A stretch of DNA of 64,000 nucleotides from assembly GCA_964633865.1 (NCBI GenBank), contig CAZWIJ010000006.1, positions 25,858 to 89,857 on the forward strand. The letters run 5' to 3'. Below, piece after piece: positions 1,627 through 52,949 of the stretch. Each line of letters starts with the position of its first letter. Position 1 is the first letter of the stretch. This stretch comes from an uncultured Candidatus Saccharibacteria bacterium (GTDB lineage: Bacteria > Patescibacteriota > Minisyncoccia > SW-4-49-11). Made by a program: the position numbers and the translations under genes. Below the pieces are notes generated by a model. The model saw only the letters and a list, made by a program, of their open reading frames with translations. It searched no databases and was not told the DNA's origin.

Positions 1627-3426
1627 ATGAAAGATCTTTTTTATCCAAATAGTTTAGCGATAATAGGTGCTTCTGATGATAGACAAAAAGTTAGTACTGT
1701 GATTTTGCATAATATTTTAAAATCTTATTATAAAGGAGATTTATTTCTAGTTAATCCAAACAAAAGAAGAATAGAAGGAATTCCTTGCTTTAATAAAATA
1801 CAAGATTTGCCTACAAGAATAGAAGTTGCTATTATTTGTTTAAGCAAAGATAAAGTTTTGGAATCATTGGAAGAATTAGGGAAAAAAGTTGTAAAATATG
1901 CTATCATAGTTTCGTCAGAATTTAGGGATATAAATGATTTTGATAATAAAGAGATAGATCAAATTAAAGAAATCTCAAAATTATATAATATTAGAGTGAT
2001 TGGTCCAAATTCATTTGGAATTATTAATACAGAATCTAATTCTTATGCTTATAATGGAGCCTATGTGATTGATAATATTATATCGGGTAAGGTCTCTATT
2101 ATCTCACAATCAAGTGGAATAATTTCTTCTTTTTTGAATCAAAGTTTTTACTCTATTAATAAAGCAATTAGTCTTGGAAATACAACAGATATTGAGGTTT
2201 CAGAAGTATTGGAATATTTGATTTTAGATAAGATGACAGAGATTATCTTTATATATATAGAAGATATAAAAGACAATAAAAAGGTAGCTAAACTAATTCA
2301 AAAATCAATTAAACCGATTATAGTTTTGCAAGGATATAATAATGATTCTAATTTTAGAAAAGTTATATTTAGGGAAGCTGGAGCAATTGAAGTAAGTACA
2401 ATTACTGAAGCTAAAAATATCATTAAGTTATTTTCTACAAAAAAAAATATTTCAAAATATGGTCTATCAGTAGTTAGTAATTCTGGAGCAATTACTAAAA
2501 TAATATCTAATAAATTACAAAATGAAAAATATTTTATCAAGACATCCTTACTACAATCCAAAACAAAAGAGCAATTAAAAAGAATTCTTCCTTATAGCGA
2601 TCAGACTCTAAATACAGTGGACTTATCAGATATAGTTAGTATAGATCAATCATATTTAGCTATAGAAACTATTTTATCAGATAAACAAGTTGGAAGTATA
2701 TTATTAGCAATAACTCCAAGTCCAGCAATAGAATTTAAAATTTTACTAAAAGAACTGGTTTTCTTAGTAGAAAAATATTCTCATAAAATTATATTGCCAG
2801 TGTTTTTGGGTAGAGTCGATATGAAATTAATATCCCAATATTTAGTTAAAAATAAGATAGCATATTATCTTGATATGGATTCAGCTTTAAGTTCAATTGA
2901 TTTTTTGTATAGATATAAATATGAAATTAATAATACTAAGTTATGGTCCACACCTACAGTATATATTAAAAAGAGTGTTATTGATGAGATAAAAGAAAAA
3001 ATGATTATTAATAAGGATGAAGAAAATTATTTGACAGCTAAAGTTTTAAATGATATATGTAATGAATTTAATTTAGTTTTGGGATTAAATAAAACAATTA
3101 AAGAAATAGATTTTTATTTGAATTTAAGTATAATTTCAAGAGATAATTTGGGTAAATTCTTGGTAATAAATAACCTAGCATTCAATTTAGAAAATAATAT
3201 TCTAGCAACTATACCTATTAATAAACCAAATATTCAAAAAATATTGAGAAATATACCAAATTATGATATAATTAAGGATAATTATGATATTCAATCCTTG
3301 ATTCATATTATATTTCAATTAAGTTTATTAGCTAACTCTATAAAAGAGATTGATGTGATTACAACTAGAATTATTTTAGAGAAAAAGAATGCTTACATAA
3401 ATTTTATAAAAATTTTAGTTAAATGA
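1627..3426 (+). CDS. CoA-binding acyl-CoA synthetase (ADP/NDP-forming)-like protein
   Basis: N-terminal CoA-binding Rossmann pattern (LAIIGASDD...VNPN...IEG.PC...DLP..IEVAIICL) similar to ADP-forming acetyl-CoA synthetase alpha domain; TGA stop overlaps next start. Confidence 0.4.
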   Translation: MKDLFYPNSLAIIGASDDRQKVSTVILHNILKSYYKGDLFLVNPNKRRIEGIPCFNKIQDLPTRIEVAIICLSKDKVLESLEELGKKVVKYAIIVSSEFRDINDFDNKEIDQIKEISKLYNIRVIGPNSFGIINTESNSYAYNGAYVIDNIISGKVSIISQSSGIISSFLNQSFYSINKAISLGNTTDIEVSEVLEYLILDKMTEIIFIYIEDIKDNKKVAKLIQKSIKPIIVLQGYNNDSNFRKVIFREAGAIEVSTITEAKNIIKLFSTKKNISKYGLSVVSNSGAITKIISNKLQNEKYFIKTSLLQSKTKEQLKRILPYSDQTLNTVDLSDIVSIDQSYLAIETILSDKQVGSILLAITPSPAIEFKILLKELVFLVEKYSHKIILPVFLGRVDMKLISQYLVKNKIAYYLDMDSALSSIDFLYRYKYEINNTKLWSTPTVYIKKSVIDEIKEKMIINKDEENYLTAKVLNDICNEFNLVLGLNKTIKEIDFYLNLSIISRDNLGKFLVINNLAFNLENNILATIPINKPNIQKILRNIPNYDIIKDNYDIQSLIHIIFQLSLLANSIKEIDVITTRIILEKKNAYINFIKILVK

Positions 3427-38772: not shown

Positions 38773-38801
38773 TTGACAAAATTTTGATTATTAGGTATAA
38801 T
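38773..38801 (+). promoter_or_regulatory. consensus sigma70 promoter TTGACA-17-TATAAT
   Basis: Exact hexamers with 17-nt spacer, 30 nt upstream of small ORF 38832. Confidence 0.55.
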
Positions 38802-38831: not shown

Positions 38832-38972
38832 ATGAAAAAACAATTGAAAGACATCTCTGCATCTAGTCCTAACTCTTTACTTTTAGTTAAAGAGAAAGAT
38901 GATAAAGGAAACAAAGACAAAGTTGTGTTTAAAAGTTGGAGCCAAATGATTGAGGAATCAATTGTTTGGTAA
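38832..38972 (+). CDS. small hypothetical protein (46 aa)
   Basis: ATG-to-TAA ORF framed by perfect promoter and hairpin terminator; below ORF-track size cut-off. Confidence 0.3.
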   Translation: MKKQLKDISASSPNSLLLVKEKDDKGNKDKVVFKSWSQMIEESIVW

Positions 38973-48113: not shown

Positions 48114-48365
48114 ATGGAAAGTTTTATACAAAGTAGAAAATATTTATTTTGGTATGTAAAAGATTTAAGTGGATTAAGTAGTAATGCTGTTGTTGAGGGT
48201 ATATTAAATTTAGGTGATTGGCAAGATTTTCAAGATTTAATAAAAATTTTAGGACTAAAAAAAATTTCACAGATTTTTTTAGAAGATATCAAGAAAGATA
48301 GAAATAACTATAGGCCAGAAATAAAACATTATTTTGAATTATATTTTAAAAAATATGTTAAATAA
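48114..48365 (+). CDS. small hypothetical protein overlapping downstream NTase gene (candidate cognate partner)
   Basis: 83 aa ORF overlapping 48334 ORF by 32 nt. Confidence 0.3.
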   Translation: MESFIQSRKYLFWYVKDLSGLSSNAVVEGILNLGDWQDFQDLIKILGLKKISQIFLEDIKKDRNNYRPEIKHYFELYFKKYVK

Positions 48366-48975
48366 ACTACATTTTGAAATTTTATCTAAAGAGCAATTAG
48401 AGATTATAAATCGTATTTCAGAAATAAATAAAAATTTTTTATTAGTTGGAGGTACAGCAATATCTTTACAGATAGGTCATAGACAATCTATAGATTTTGA
48501 CTTCTTTTCAGATAAAGAATTTGATATGGATTCTTTAAAAAATGATCTCAGGAAATATATAAGTTTCGATAAAGTTTTAATAGATAAAATAAATGAATTT
48601 ACATTTATTTCTAATAATGTTAAGTTAACTTATTTATATTATCCTTTTAAAATTACAGAAAATATAATACAAACAGAATATAATATAAATATACCAGATA
48701 TAAGAACTCTATTAGCTATGAAATTATATGCTCTTAGCAGAAGATCAAAATGGAAAGATTATGTTGATATATATTTTGGTTTAAAATATTTGAGTTTAGA
48801 TGAACTAATATTGAAAGCAAAATATATATTTGGGAATGAATTAAATGAAAAAATTATCAGAGTTCAGTTAACTTATTTTAAAGATATTGATTATACAGAA
48901 GAAGTAATTTATATGCCAACATATGATATATCTAATCAAGAAATAAAAAAATACTTAACAGAGATTAGTTTATAA
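48334..48975 (+). CDS. nucleotidyltransferase, AbiEii/AbiGii toxin family-like
   Basis: LVGGTAISLQIGHRQSIDFDFF matches the GGTAL...HR.S.DiDff core of DUF1814/AbiEii NTases. Confidence 0.5.
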   Translation: MNYILKNMLNKLHFEILSKEQLEIINRISEINKNFLLVGGTAISLQIGHRQSIDFDFFSDKEFDMDSLKNDLRKYISFDKVLIDKINEFTFISNNVKLTYLYYPFKITENIIQTEYNINIPDIRTLLAMKLYALSRRSKWKDYVDIYFGLKYLSLDELILKAKYIFGNELNEKIIRVQLTYFKDIDYTEEVIYMPTYDISNQEIKKYLTEISL

Positions 48976-49680: not shown

Positions 49681-50403
49681 ATGAATAAAAAATTGAAAAA
49701 AGGTTTCACATTAATTGAACTATTAGTAGTGGTCGCTATAATAGGAACATTGACAGCCATTGTATTAATTGGAGTTAATAATGGAAGAAGAGCTGGAAGA
49801 GAAGCTGCAGTTCAGCAAAGTATGAATCAATTAATTACTCAGATGGAATTGTTGTTACAACAATCAGGAGGAACTAGTTATCCAGATCCACTAAGTTCAG
49901 ATACAACTAATATTGCTAGAGAAACAAGACAATATCCTACAAATAATGCTGTAGGAAGAAATATAGGAGACTTAGTACCAACATTGACATCTCTTATTGA
50001 AAAAATTGAATCTCAAGGTTCTCAAAAAATAGTTTACCATTATAATAATACTGGGAAACCATCCTATAGAATAGTAGCTCTTATGCCTGGACAAGTTTTG
50101 AATGCAACATCTCAAAAAGCATATTGTATAGATAGTTTTGGTTATAGCGGAACAATAACATTAGCAAGTGCTCAAAGTACAGGTAATGCTGGTTCTGTTA
50201 CGGCTAATTCATTGAGTGTTATGAATATAGTGAATACTGGCAACTCATTAAAGGAAAATAATACATTTGTTTCTAGAAATAGAACAGCATTTGGAAGGAC
50301 AACAGATAATACGAATAATATTAAACTAACAGGTACACCAGAAGGAAATTCTTATGCTGGAGAATCAAATAATACAGGAGGAAACGGTAATAAGTGTAAT
50401 TAA
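49681..50403 (+). CDS. type IV pilin (paralog 2, longer C-terminal domain)
   Basis: MNKKLKKGFTLIELLVVVAIIGTL; first ~50 aa nearly identical to 49201 gene, C-terminus divergent. Confidence 0.7.
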   Translation: MNKKLKKGFTLIELLVVVAIIGTLTAIVLIGVNNGRRAGREAAVQQSMNQLITQMELLLQQSGGTSYPDPLSSDTTNIARETRQYPTNNAVGRNIGDLVPTLTSLIEKIESQGSQKIVYHYNNTGKPSYRIVALMPGQVLNATSQKAYCIDSFGYSGTITLASAQSTGNAGSVTANSLSVMNIVNTGNSLKENNTFVSRNRTAFGRTTDNTNNIKLTGTPEGNSYAGESNNTGGNGNKCN

Positions 50404-50413
50404 TCTTAGTAAA

Positions 50414-50443
50414 AACACTCTCTAAAAAGAGTGTTTTTTATTT
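50414..50443 (+). terminator. rho-independent terminator after pilin pair
   Basis: aacactct-ctaaaa-agagtgtt followed by ttttattttgg. Confidence 0.6.
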
Positions 50444-50640
50444 TGGAAAAGAAGAAAGTTAGTTTTTAATTCTTAATTTTTATTTTTTTTTTACAATCCT
50501 AAAAATCCACCTCGTTACTTTTGCTGACACTATTCAAGAGAGGAATTTAAAGCAGTTTTCTTTTTACCCCTCTTTTTTGAAGGGGGTGTCTCGTAAGAGA
50601 CGGGGGTTGTAAAGATTATTCACAATGTATTAATTTAGAT

Positions 50641-50669
50641 TTGACAGAAGAGAGGGAGTGTGGTATAAT
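50641..50669 (+). promoter_or_regulatory. consensus sigma70 promoter TTGACA-17-TATAAT in GC-rich intergenic region
   Basis: Exact hexamers, 17-nt spacer; followed ~25 nt later by hairpin + T-run (50696-50729). Confidence 0.45.
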
Positions 50670-50724
50670 TATTTTGTATTCGGGATTACCCGCGACCCTC
50701 TTGAAATATAGAGGGGTTATTTTT

Positions 50725-51123
50725 TTATTGGTACAAATTCAGAAAATTGTTTTTAATTTGAGAGAATTCATTATCAGTTATTTCTCCTACTTTATATTTT
50801 AATCTTCGATAATCTAAATGTCTTGGTTGATGTAAATATATAGTTTGTAACTTTTCTTTAAAATAAATTTTAAAATATCTATTACCCACTTTGTCTTTTG
50901 TGCTTAGAGGTAATCCTATAAAACTGTATCTATCTAATTTTTTTAAAATTAAAAAAGGTCTTAGAAATTCTTTTCCTTTACCACTAATTTCTATACCTAT
51001 ATTCTCTCCACAATAACAGAACCAAACTTGTTTTTGAGAAAACTTTGGAGGATAATAGTTTAGTTTATCTAACTTAGGTTTCAGAGAAAACCAATCTTGG
51101 AAATTTTTAATAAAGTTTTGCAT
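50725..51123 (-). CDS. PemK/MazF-family endoribonuclease toxin-like protein (solo)
   Basis: GENIGIEISGKGKEFLRPFLILKKLD...FIGLPLSTK...HLDYRRL resembles the MazF/PemK core (G.E.gG..RP.lvl...n......PlTs). Confidence 0.45.
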   Translation of the reverse strand: MQNFIKNFQDWFSLKPKLDKLNYYPPKFSQKQVWFCYCGENIGIEISGKGKEFLRPFLILKKLDRYSFIGLPLSTKDKVGNRYFKIYFKEKLQTIYLHQPRHLDYRRLKYKVGEITDNEFSQIKNNFLNLYQ

Positions 51124-51229
51124 AAGAAATAAATTAATCTTTGGTCAAAGAAAGTGATTATTTTGTAATTGTATGTAATATTAATACATGGTATAATTAA
51201 TTTGTTAATATAAATAAATTACTAAATAT

Positions 51230-52571: not shown

Positions 52572-52949
52572 TTATTTAATAGCATACTCCTCCGATGTCA
52601 TGCCATTAAATAGAGCTTTCTCTGTTATGTATTGTTGAAATACATCTTTGATAAGATCCTTTAAAATCTCTTTATCAGAAGTATTTTCTATAAGAGATGT
52701 ATAGTCAATAATACAAAATTCTTGTTCTAGAGAAAGACTTTCTTGAAAGATATTTCTTTCTGATTTGGTTTCTACTCCTAAATAGATTTTAGATAGAAAT
52801 TTAATCCTATTTTTTTGTAAAAAATATTTTTTACATGTCTCTATAAGAAATTCTCTTAAATCATTTAGTTTCATATCTTCTATGACAGAAGATAATTTAA
52901 CTATTTCAAATTCTTGTGAAAAAGTTAAAGTTTCCATAAGATTCTCCAT
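52572..52949 (-). CDS. hypothetical protein
   Basis: 125 aa ORF, no recognisable motif. Confidence 0.3.
   Translation of the reverse strand: MENLMETLTFSQEFEIVKLSSVIEDMKLNDLREFLIETCKKYFLQKNRIKFLSKIYLGVETKSERNIFQESLSLEQEFCIIDYTSLIENTSDKEILKDLIKDVFQQYITEKALFNGMTSEEYAIK

Follow-up and report, generated by a model that had tools for sequence, protein, structure and literature searches.

A two-hairpin RNA convergent with a solo MazF-like toxin gene in Candidatus Saccharibacteria: a conserved candidate antitoxin

Toxins controlled by RNA are already known, and one case from Campylobacter probably concerns the toxin family treated here. Our subject is a pair of convergent genes, one for a MazF-like toxin and the other for a predicted small RNA (sRNA), in a 64,000-nt stretch of contig CAZWIJ010000006.1 from an uncultured Candidatus Saccharibacteria bacterium; this whole stretch is termed the window, and plain coordinates refer to it, while those preceded by an L-number refer to related loci. 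In the 3'-overlapping type I toxin-antitoxin (TA) pairs of Bacillus subtilis (txpA/RatA, bsrG/SR4, bsrE/SR5, yonT/SR6) the genes likewise converge, each from its own promoter, that of the antitoxin being strong; the RNA complements the 3' end of its toxin message, contact begins in a terminator loop, and RNase III then cuts close to the stop codon (PMC6562991). The window pair resembles these in its convergent genes and in the overlap of the RNA's U-run with the toxin stop codon, but their toxins are small hydrophobic peptides whereas that of the window is predicted to be a soluble RNase of MazF fold, 132 aa long; their RNAs measure 100-220 nt and overlap by 75-120 nt, whereas the window RNA has about 50 nt and its 3' end falls precisely on the stop codon; and, unlike theirs, the RNA family of the window keeps its unpaired bases across phyla. 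Type I systems with toxins of less typical kinds do exist, SymE and RalR being examples.

With type III systems (ToxIN, CptIN, TenpIN) the locus shares an endoribonuclease toxin, a small structured RNA, presumably in excess, the lack of a protein antitoxin, and location in defence islands. Type III antitoxins, however, are tandem repeats placed upstream on the same strand and processed by the toxin, whereas the window RNA forms one unit that lies downstream, faces the toxin gene and has a promoter and terminator of its own; the toxin matches MazF rather than ToxN/AbiQ and falls outside the ToxN/AbiQ, CptN and TenpN families, and Rfam gave no match to an antitoxin family of this type. Public annotation places such proteins with the type II MazEF/PemIK toxins, whose fold and Arg-Pro catalytic-loop motif they keep, but the window toxin has no adjoining MazE/PemI or other open reading frame (ORF), the same being true in arrays of the module, and it carries an extra conserved N-terminal helix (residues 2-18). 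The Rfam pemK motif (RF02913; Weinberg et al. 2017) is also a conserved RNA, named for its association with pemK; it is listed as cis-regulatory, whereas the window RNA would be a separate convergent transcript downstream of the gene. RF02913 was considered for our locus and set aside, having given no match at E up to 10 in the region nor, on either strand, at E up to 1 in five related loci.

The plasmid pVir of Campylobacter jejuni 81-176 reportedly carries a type I pair, the RNA antitoxin cjrA and the protein toxin cjpT, demonstrated by experiment. CjpT is likely to be the product of the pVir PemK/MazF gene, which database names call only a 'type II PemK/MazF family toxin'. That gene, the sole annotated toxin there, has no protein antitoxin beside it; its product is 36% identical to ours over 81% of the protein. 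Facing it is a TTGATT-17-TGnTATAAT promoter, whose transcript would measure about 90 nt and finish in a GC hairpin on the toxin stop codon. pVir thus shares a toxin homologue and the convergent geometry with the window module and, if CjpT is indeed this protein, offers a case of the same toxin family and geometry in which the antitoxin role of the RNA has been shown experimentally; the difference lies in the RNA, which in pVir would be longer than the roughly 50 nt of the window, is predicted to have another fold and is unmatched by our covariance model (R1, below). Two papers term CjrA an antisense sRNA and the type I antitoxin of the pVir plasmid (PMC10470494, PMC7826846). The literature searched contained no PemK/MazF toxin with an RNA antitoxin of the form described here, and the 48-nt RNA itself, its covariation-backed structure, its link to an N-extended MazF subfamily and its spread among candidate-phyla-radiation bacteria are absent from Rfam and from the searchable literature.

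The promoter, the RNA and the MazF-fold protein

The module consists of three elements:

50641-50669, plus strand: sigma-70 promoter of the sRNA, matching the consensus at 12/12 positions (promoter scan)
50676-50726, plus strand: predicted sRNA of about 51 nt (fold, covariance model R1, covariation)
50725-51123, minus strand: gene for a 132-aa protein of MazF/PemK fold, presumed endoribonuclease toxin (Pfam, profile, structure model)

An earlier, sequence-only reading of this region had drawn attention to a perfect TTGACA-17-TATAAT promoter and judged it probably functional. It is there: the -35 hexamer TTGACA occupies 50641-50646 and the -10 hexamer TATAAT 50664-50669, separated by a 17-nt spacer that ends in TGG, so making an extended -10 with its TG at 50661-50662. 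Perfect TTGACA-N17-TATAAT sites number two in the window, both strands counted, against 0.09 expected from shuffles, and none of 100 shuffles of the window yielded two. The other such site (38773-38801) lies 30 nt 5' of an ORF (38832-38972) encoding 46 aa, MKKQLKDISASSPNSLLLVKEKDDKGNKDKVVFKSWSQMIEESIVW.

The RNA would begin at G50676, the seventh nucleotide past the -10, with the leader GUAUU, whose UAUU begins after 7 nt. Hairpin 1 (50681-50692) is a 4-bp stem, CGGG-AUUA-CCCG, joined by the linker CGA to a terminator hairpin, CCCUCU-8 nt-AGAGGG (50696-50715), which is followed by GUUA and then by seven U (50720-50726); a terminator scan labels the hairpin and U-run together (50696-50726) as a terminator. 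Within the U-run lies the toxin stop codon, TAA (50725-50727). The 51 nt fold as two hairpins at -15.2 kcal/mol (z = -2.1). Hexamers at a 16-18 nt spacing, followed on the same strand by a GC hairpin and U-run, are what an independent transcription unit should display. All of the hairpins noticed earlier, both those downstream of the promoter with their U-run and the two GC hairpins upstream, are thus present; the description of the gap as a GC-rich island holds only in the relative sense, its GC content being 36-38% compared with 27.6% for the window. The sRNA region has no second copy within the 64 kb.

Nor does the RNA belong to a catalogued family. Rfam at gathering thresholds returned only rRNA and one tRNA from the whole window and, at E up to 10 over 50250-50950, only chance-level matches, all to the terminator of the upstream pilin gene (50411-50438); five related loci gave no relevant Rfam match, and ARAGORN found no tmRNA, bearing out an earlier inspection by eye. 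A protein-coding reading was also considered and is not credible: the sole ORF across the region (50641-50802, 53 aa) has its TTG start inside the -35 hexamer and extends into the toxin gene in antisense orientation, there being no further ORF of at least 20 aa.

The protein encoded opposite, described earlier as a solo MazF-like toxin, matches Pfam PF02452 (PemK/MazF-like) at E = 1.6e-5, and a profile of its family finds Staphylococcus aureus MazF and B. subtilis MazF/EndoA in the PDB at E of about 6e-5 to 4e-4. The same two enzymes are the best Foldseek matches to an AlphaFold model (pLDDT 82) computed from a 12-row alignment; each of the best 50 matches is of the MazF/PemK family, YdcE and MoxT included, and ToxN is absent from them. 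The additional helix precedes the MazF core, and F4, K6, F8, W11, K15 and D19 are invariant in its region. T75 is almost invariant, and R55-P56 completely; in the alignment the latter pair falls on the Arg-Pro of the MazF catalytic loop, suggesting a catalytic role. The full-length profile is matched by about 1,486 clusters (50% identity) at E up to 1e-10, and neither NCBIfam nor PADLOC has a model for the family. Its genes do appear to be solitary: no suitable ORF of at least 20 aa for a MazE/PemI-like partner is present in the flanks of the window gene, and no protein antitoxin ORF lies between the modules of an array in L038. Toxin homologues are absent from phage records, and in a viral collection, which likewise lacks one, two matches to the DNA pattern of the sRNA (below) were not confirmed by R1.

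Recurrence of the RNA with the toxin gene

Sequence identical to that of the window is found in 19 metagenome contigs, and the genome occurs in groundwater samples of Rifle type (JGI 3300008020 and others). The nearest divergent relative (L010) has a PGK gene 97.8% identical to that of the window and a toxin gene 99.7% identical, while its promoter and sRNA are 100% identical. L010 also carries a second, diverged toxin gene (52% protein identity) that is faced by a separate promoter and two hairpins, in which the hexamers of the promoter are retained while both stems are altered compensatorily. Two independent assemblies (L016, L017) end some 370-390 nt past the pilin gene, near window position 50770-50790, inside or just after the sRNA/toxin 3' region; these breaks may reflect strain variation at the module, for example an extra copy such as that in L010.

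Further afield, six toxin homologues of 47-82% identity all have a promoter, hairpin and terminator converging on the stop codon, in varying company: PGK, a glycosyltransferase, a GmrSD-like protein and EcoRI-type methylase, or DprA. The shared layout is a sigma-70 promoter, 7 nt, AUU, a 4-bp hairpin, CG-N-CC, a terminator hairpin and a tail. Scanning a metagenome collection with a protein pattern added 46 loci (29-84% identity) of the same layout, GC-richer organisms included. The converse scan, from the RNA side, used a DNA pattern covering the -10 and hairpin 1 on one genome for each of 185,579 species, and gave 11 matches. Six have the complete two-hairpin element and belong to Candidatus Saccharibacteria, Paceibacteria/Paceibacterota, Peribacteria and one unclassified genome; four of these are directly convergent to a toxin homologue, and two lie in islands with two and five toxin paralogues. 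The remaining five (Sulfobacillus, Acinetobacter and others) have no hairpins, terminator or toxin, in keeping with a hand estimate that so informative a pattern should match a few times by chance in this many genomes.

Covariance model R1 was built from 46 instances of the RNA, excluding the promoter, and searched over 303 kb. It found 69 matches at E < 0.01, none of them in the five chance loci; the single match in the window (50675-50723) scored 55.2 bits, E = 4e-18. A convergent R1 match at this threshold accompanies 64 of the 71 toxin 3' ends that have enough flanking sequence, so the neighbourhood of RNA and solo toxin is no peculiarity of the window. As for the seven misses, the R1 match in L025 lies inside an extended ORF, the near-identical L040 and L041 each have a second toxin gene with a variant form visible by eye, L079 accounts for two more such variants, and L063 and L082 make up the number. 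The pair occurs in Saccharibacteria, Paceibacteria, Peribacteria and many metagenomes.

These loci include near-duplicates, and reduce to 58 unique promoter-plus-RNA sequences. A promoter matching at least 9/12 consensus positions, and lying at a fixed distance, is present in 52 of the 58 (11 perfect) even though the promoter lay outside the model; together with the excess of perfect sites over shuffles this argues against chance, and such conservation suggests that the promoter is indeed functional. The spacer is of 17 nt in 46 copies, and in 45 of the 58 the -10 ends 5 nt before the R1 start; because of this fixed offset we place the start of the RNA at the purine one base before UAUU.

The structure is conserved as well as the sequence. 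As a structured RNA should, the element shows double changes at all nine modelled pairs, four in hairpin 1 and five in the terminator: the base of hairpin 1 alternates between C-G and U-A (27 and 25 instances), its top between G-C and C-G (26 and 25). Paired cells amount to 94.9%, compared with 33-64% when partners are slid by 1-3 columns, and none of 500 shuffles reached the observed covariation score. The transcript of about 50 nt supposed earlier thus corresponds to an element that is kept in relatives and whose helices both covary, as a real RNA would.

Modules can be crowded together. One Paceibacterota locus (L030:1-8000) holds five toxin-plus-sRNA modules within 8 kb, in both orientations and each with a distinct sRNA variant, two adjacent modules having back-to-back sRNA promoters. 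sRNA genes without an adjoining toxin are seen at L030:5454-5565, L033:5673-5721 and L034:5272-5318, L030 having a tandem pair of which one member is intact (10/12 promoter) and the other decayed; at L021:3013-3071 a second, different sRNA gene stands in tandem behind the cognate one. The toxin-less genes may have been left behind when a toxin was lost, or may serve as free-standing 'anti-addiction' antitoxins. At four loci (L025, at 2501-2983; L046; L047; L060) the toxin ORF lacks its usual stop and continues through the sRNA gene, whose antisense strand thus adds some 20 aa to the C-terminus of the protein.

Distant toxin homologues in a plasmid collection are confined to Campylobacterota, pVir among them. 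On a Nitratiruptor plasmid a convergent TTGCAT-17-TGnTATAAT promoter is followed, after 7 nt, by a two-hairpin RNA of about 45 nt ending on the stop codon; on a Helicobacter plasmid the convergent RNA has three hairpins. R1 finds nothing above noise in the pVir locus and does not detect the RNAs of these plasmids: their geometry is that of the window module, their RNA sequence is different. On the Nitratiruptor plasmid an annotated 'hypothetical protein' coding sequence 3' of the toxin (L085:1255-1443) overlaps the predicted sRNA promoter and may be a mis-call.

How the RNA might act

Very probably this is a genuine sRNA gene, functionally tied to the toxin, in which the promoter drives a two-hairpin RNA of about 50 nt. 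Since the RNA-plus-toxin pair recurs and a protein antitoxin is absent, the RNA is most likely the missing antitoxin, a role that we consider probable. Convergent placement is near-universal and fits a cis-antisense pair, which makes an antisense antitoxin the leading model; whether the RNA acts mainly by pairing, in the manner of type I, with the toxin mRNA at its 3' end is a proposition we hold in even balance. Taken whole, the explanation we favour, with about as much confidence as doubt, is that sRNA and toxin gene form a mobile two-gene TA module lacking a protein antitoxin. We infer from sequence comparison that the RNA is transcribed, that it serves as antitoxin, how far the toxin mRNA extends, and that the mechanism is antisense.

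Such a module could work as follows. The strong constitutive promoter would hold the sRNA in excess. The toxin mRNA, having no terminator of its own past the stop codon, would read through the sRNA gene: the terminator scan showed no terminator-like site on the toxin strand from 50724 to 49956 (about 770 nt), and the sRNA's terminator hairpin, read on the toxin strand, has no U-run after it and so should not serve the toxin gene; at the four loci named above the toxin ORF itself crosses the sRNA gene. With such read-through the last codons, stop codon and 3' untranslated region (UTR) of the toxin mRNA would be perfectly complementary to the whole sRNA; and since the 3' end of the sRNA coincides with this codon, full complementarity would hold for every toxin transcript extending past it. 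Pairing, probably nucleated at a hairpin loop, would generate a duplex of about 50 bp from the stop codon, whose cleavage, or a block to productive translation, would leave little toxin, as happens with txpA/RatA, bsrG/SR4 and yonT/SR6. Loss of the module, or an end to sRNA synthesis, would allow the toxin to be made and to cleave cellular RNA.

Several observations weigh against this explanation. There are the toxin-less sRNA genes (L030, L033, L034). Unpaired bases are conserved: two of them, the U that precedes hairpin 1 and the G of the CG dinucleotide after it, never vary, and conservation reaches at least 90% at the C of this dinucleotide and at the loop A and U. Pure cis-antisense pairing over a non-coding 3' UTR needs no such conservation, which hints at recognition by a protein. 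The sRNA would be nearly all locked in stable hairpins with small loops, poor material for fast RNA-RNA pairing, and the toxin is a 132-aa enzyme, unlike the small membrane peptides typical of type I. On the structural side, the first covariation set was chosen by a rule that required pairing, and the later count depends on an alignment fitted to the model; neither folding energy nor G-U asymmetry favours the sRNA strand over its complement, and because folding energies are strand-neutral we take the strand from the promoter and U-run.

The RNA of the same module might instead neutralise the toxin protein directly, in the manner of type III, which we judge unlikely but the conserved unpaired bases speak for it. 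The hairpin and its conserved flanking bases would bind the MazF dimer, with the RYAUU leader lodged in the RNA-binding groove as an uncleavable mimic of substrate or product, and complementarity to the 3' UTR would be a by-product of tight linkage. Single-stranded positions are indeed conserved across phyla, among toxins only 30-50% identical; MazF-fold and ToxN-type RNases inherently bind RNA; and the toxin is nearest in sequence and fold to the B. subtilis and S. aureus MazF enzymes, which cut U^ACAU, while the DNA at the predicted start reads Y-R-Y-A-U-U (UACAUU, CAUAUU, UGUAUU), the start being the purine after the first Y. That start is itself a prediction, however, and cognate toxin genes show no depletion of the leader 5-mer (41 observed, 46.7 expected). 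Co-resident modules of one island differ in hairpin-1 sequence, a point in favour, but quite different toxins can go with the same hairpin 1 (L030 modules 3 and 5), which therefore does not simply encode specificity. The existence of intact orphan sRNA genes whose promoters are good also suits an RNA that binds protein; strict convergent placement on the stop codon would then have no obvious reason, and there are neither tandem repeats nor any hint that the RNA needs processing. A more specific form of the proposal, doubtful and to our mind slightly more so, is that the 48-nt RNA is a non-repetitive, separately transcribed, unprocessed antitoxin binding a MazF-fold RNase, its 5' end right after the cleavage point, so that the conserved hairpin would hold it in the active site as an uncleavable mimic. 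If this is so, a type III-like mechanism would have evolved independently for the MazF family, would cover more than 1,000 'solo' MazF clusters and would be widespread in candidate-phyla-radiation bacteria. Leader and tail share a motif only weakly (p = 0.024), and relatedness and base composition confound the signal; this and the tests of cognate start pairing, strand asymmetry and leader depletion provide nothing decisive as between the antisense and protein-binding models.

It is improbable that the RNA is a conserved toxin-linked sRNA of some other kind: an mRNA-stability or 3'-end device, a sensor or decoy in abortive infection, or a trans-acting RNA. The linkage and conservation seen with R1 and in the toxin census would fit this too, the antitoxin role being read from sequence, and modules do reside in defence/TA islands: AbiEii is nearby in the window, and the L022 island has a GmrSD-like HNH protein and an EcoRI-type methylase. 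An active MazF-fold RNase left uninhibited would, however, be hard to keep at up to five copies in 8 kb (L030), and the modules hold no alternative antitoxin candidate. Complementarity of the sRNA to the -60 to +30 region of its own toxin gene is not cognate-specific (-17.75 kcal/mol, compared with -17.43 for non-cognate pairs; p = 0.22), and a different cis target on the same mRNA is therefore unlikely. Least credible of all is that there is no functional RNA, only a recombination or insertion site acting at the DNA level, or a toxin terminator beside a fortuitous promoter. The modules are clearly mobile, being found in many neighbourhoods and in arrays, the window module is bracketed by a 17-nt direct repeat (below), and folding energy has no strand preference; but most copies keep a promoter at a fixed 7-nt distance and a U-run on the same strand despite divergence outside the hexamers, the hairpin has no U-run on the toxin strand, and compensatory changes maintain pairing in both helices.

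Should the antitoxin role hold, a conserved RNA partner would explain how 'solo' RNase toxins come to be carried, sometimes five in 8 kb, by organisms whose proteins annotation pipelines label 'type II PemK/MazF toxins' although the protein antitoxin is absent. The element is an RNA family that Rfam lacks and a conserved, putatively regulatory sRNA of candidate-phyla-radiation bacteria; its covariance model could be used to re-annotate the TA content of metagenome-assembled genomes. As the system is small, an RNA of 48 nt and a protein of 132 aa, simple experiments could settle whether the MazF fold is controlled at the level of RNA or of protein.

The upstream hairpins and the surroundings of the module

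Four further features lie outside the module:

50567-50607, plus strand: the two upstream GC hairpins, CCCCUC..GAAGGGG and GUCUC-GUAA-GAGAC, followed by GGGGG
50504-50547, minus (toxin) strand: putative degenerate copy of the repeated element R2 (9.0 bits, E = 0.004, 601-bp search)
51189-51205, plus strand: 17-nt direct repeat of the sRNA -10 region (repeat search)
50411-50438, plus strand: terminator hairpin of the upstream pilin-like gene (49681-50403; terminator scan)

The sequence-only reading had allowed for a longer sRNA that takes in the upstream hairpins. This part of it finds no support: upstream of the promoter, L010 can be aligned with the window over 92 nt only, at about 80% identity, and because the hairpins are not conserved in this nearest relative we exclude them from the sRNA; they appear to lie outside the conserved unit. 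A long-range fold of the whole island (240 nt; z = -1.8 on the plus strand and -3.7 on the minus) was considered too, but L010 keeps neither the helix that closes it nor the hairpins inside.

The hairpins may have another origin. A GC-rich element, R2, is present in more than 20 copies, in both orientations, in the toxin islands of AT-rich genomes, usually 40-220 nt upstream of a toxin start and on the opposite strand. It comprises a GC-rich core, GAGGGGTGG, a hairpin, CAGGCTTCGCCTG, and then GACGGGGTGGA, with two GGGGTGG direct repeats flanking the hairpin. Copies are located at L028:3892-3937, L030:5991-6036 and 3362-3407, L038:16-61 and 807-852, and L026:609-655, and more in L033, L034, L042, L053, L055, L056, L068 and L073. 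The two best places for an R2 model in 601 bp of the window are 50504-50547 and, on the plus strand, 50567-50605 (6.1 bits, E = 0.05), true copies scoring 48-72 bits; the position in L010 homologous to 50504-50547 carries an intact copy (2831-2874, 48 bits). The upstream hairpins of the window and their inverted neighbour may therefore be decayed R2 copies. The element has no Rfam match; it might act as an operator, insulate as a terminator or serve for recombination.

On the other side of the module, the repeat TGGTATAATTAATTTGT at 51189-51205 is identical at 16 of 17 positions to TGGTATAATTATTTTGT at 50661-50677. The latter spans the -10 and start region of the sRNA, the former lies in the presumed PGK promoter, and the two, 528 nt apart, flank the 528-bp sRNA-plus-toxin module; they may be a trace of module insertion or of promoter copying. 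The left boundary of the intergenic region is the pilin-gene terminator, and within the region no tandem repeats were found except an AT-rich run of 7-mers at 50459-50488.

About 1.7 kb from the MazF-like module, between type IV pilus genes and the pilin genes, a DUF6922 gene (a weak match, under the Pfam cut-off) overlaps a gene for an AbiEii-type nucleotidyltransferase toxin (48114-48975). Beyond the module, a 125-aa ORF (52572-52949) matches Pfam NblA, a phycobilisome degradation protein, at E = 5e-7, an unexpected match in a non-photosynthetic genome of candidate-phyla-radiation type.

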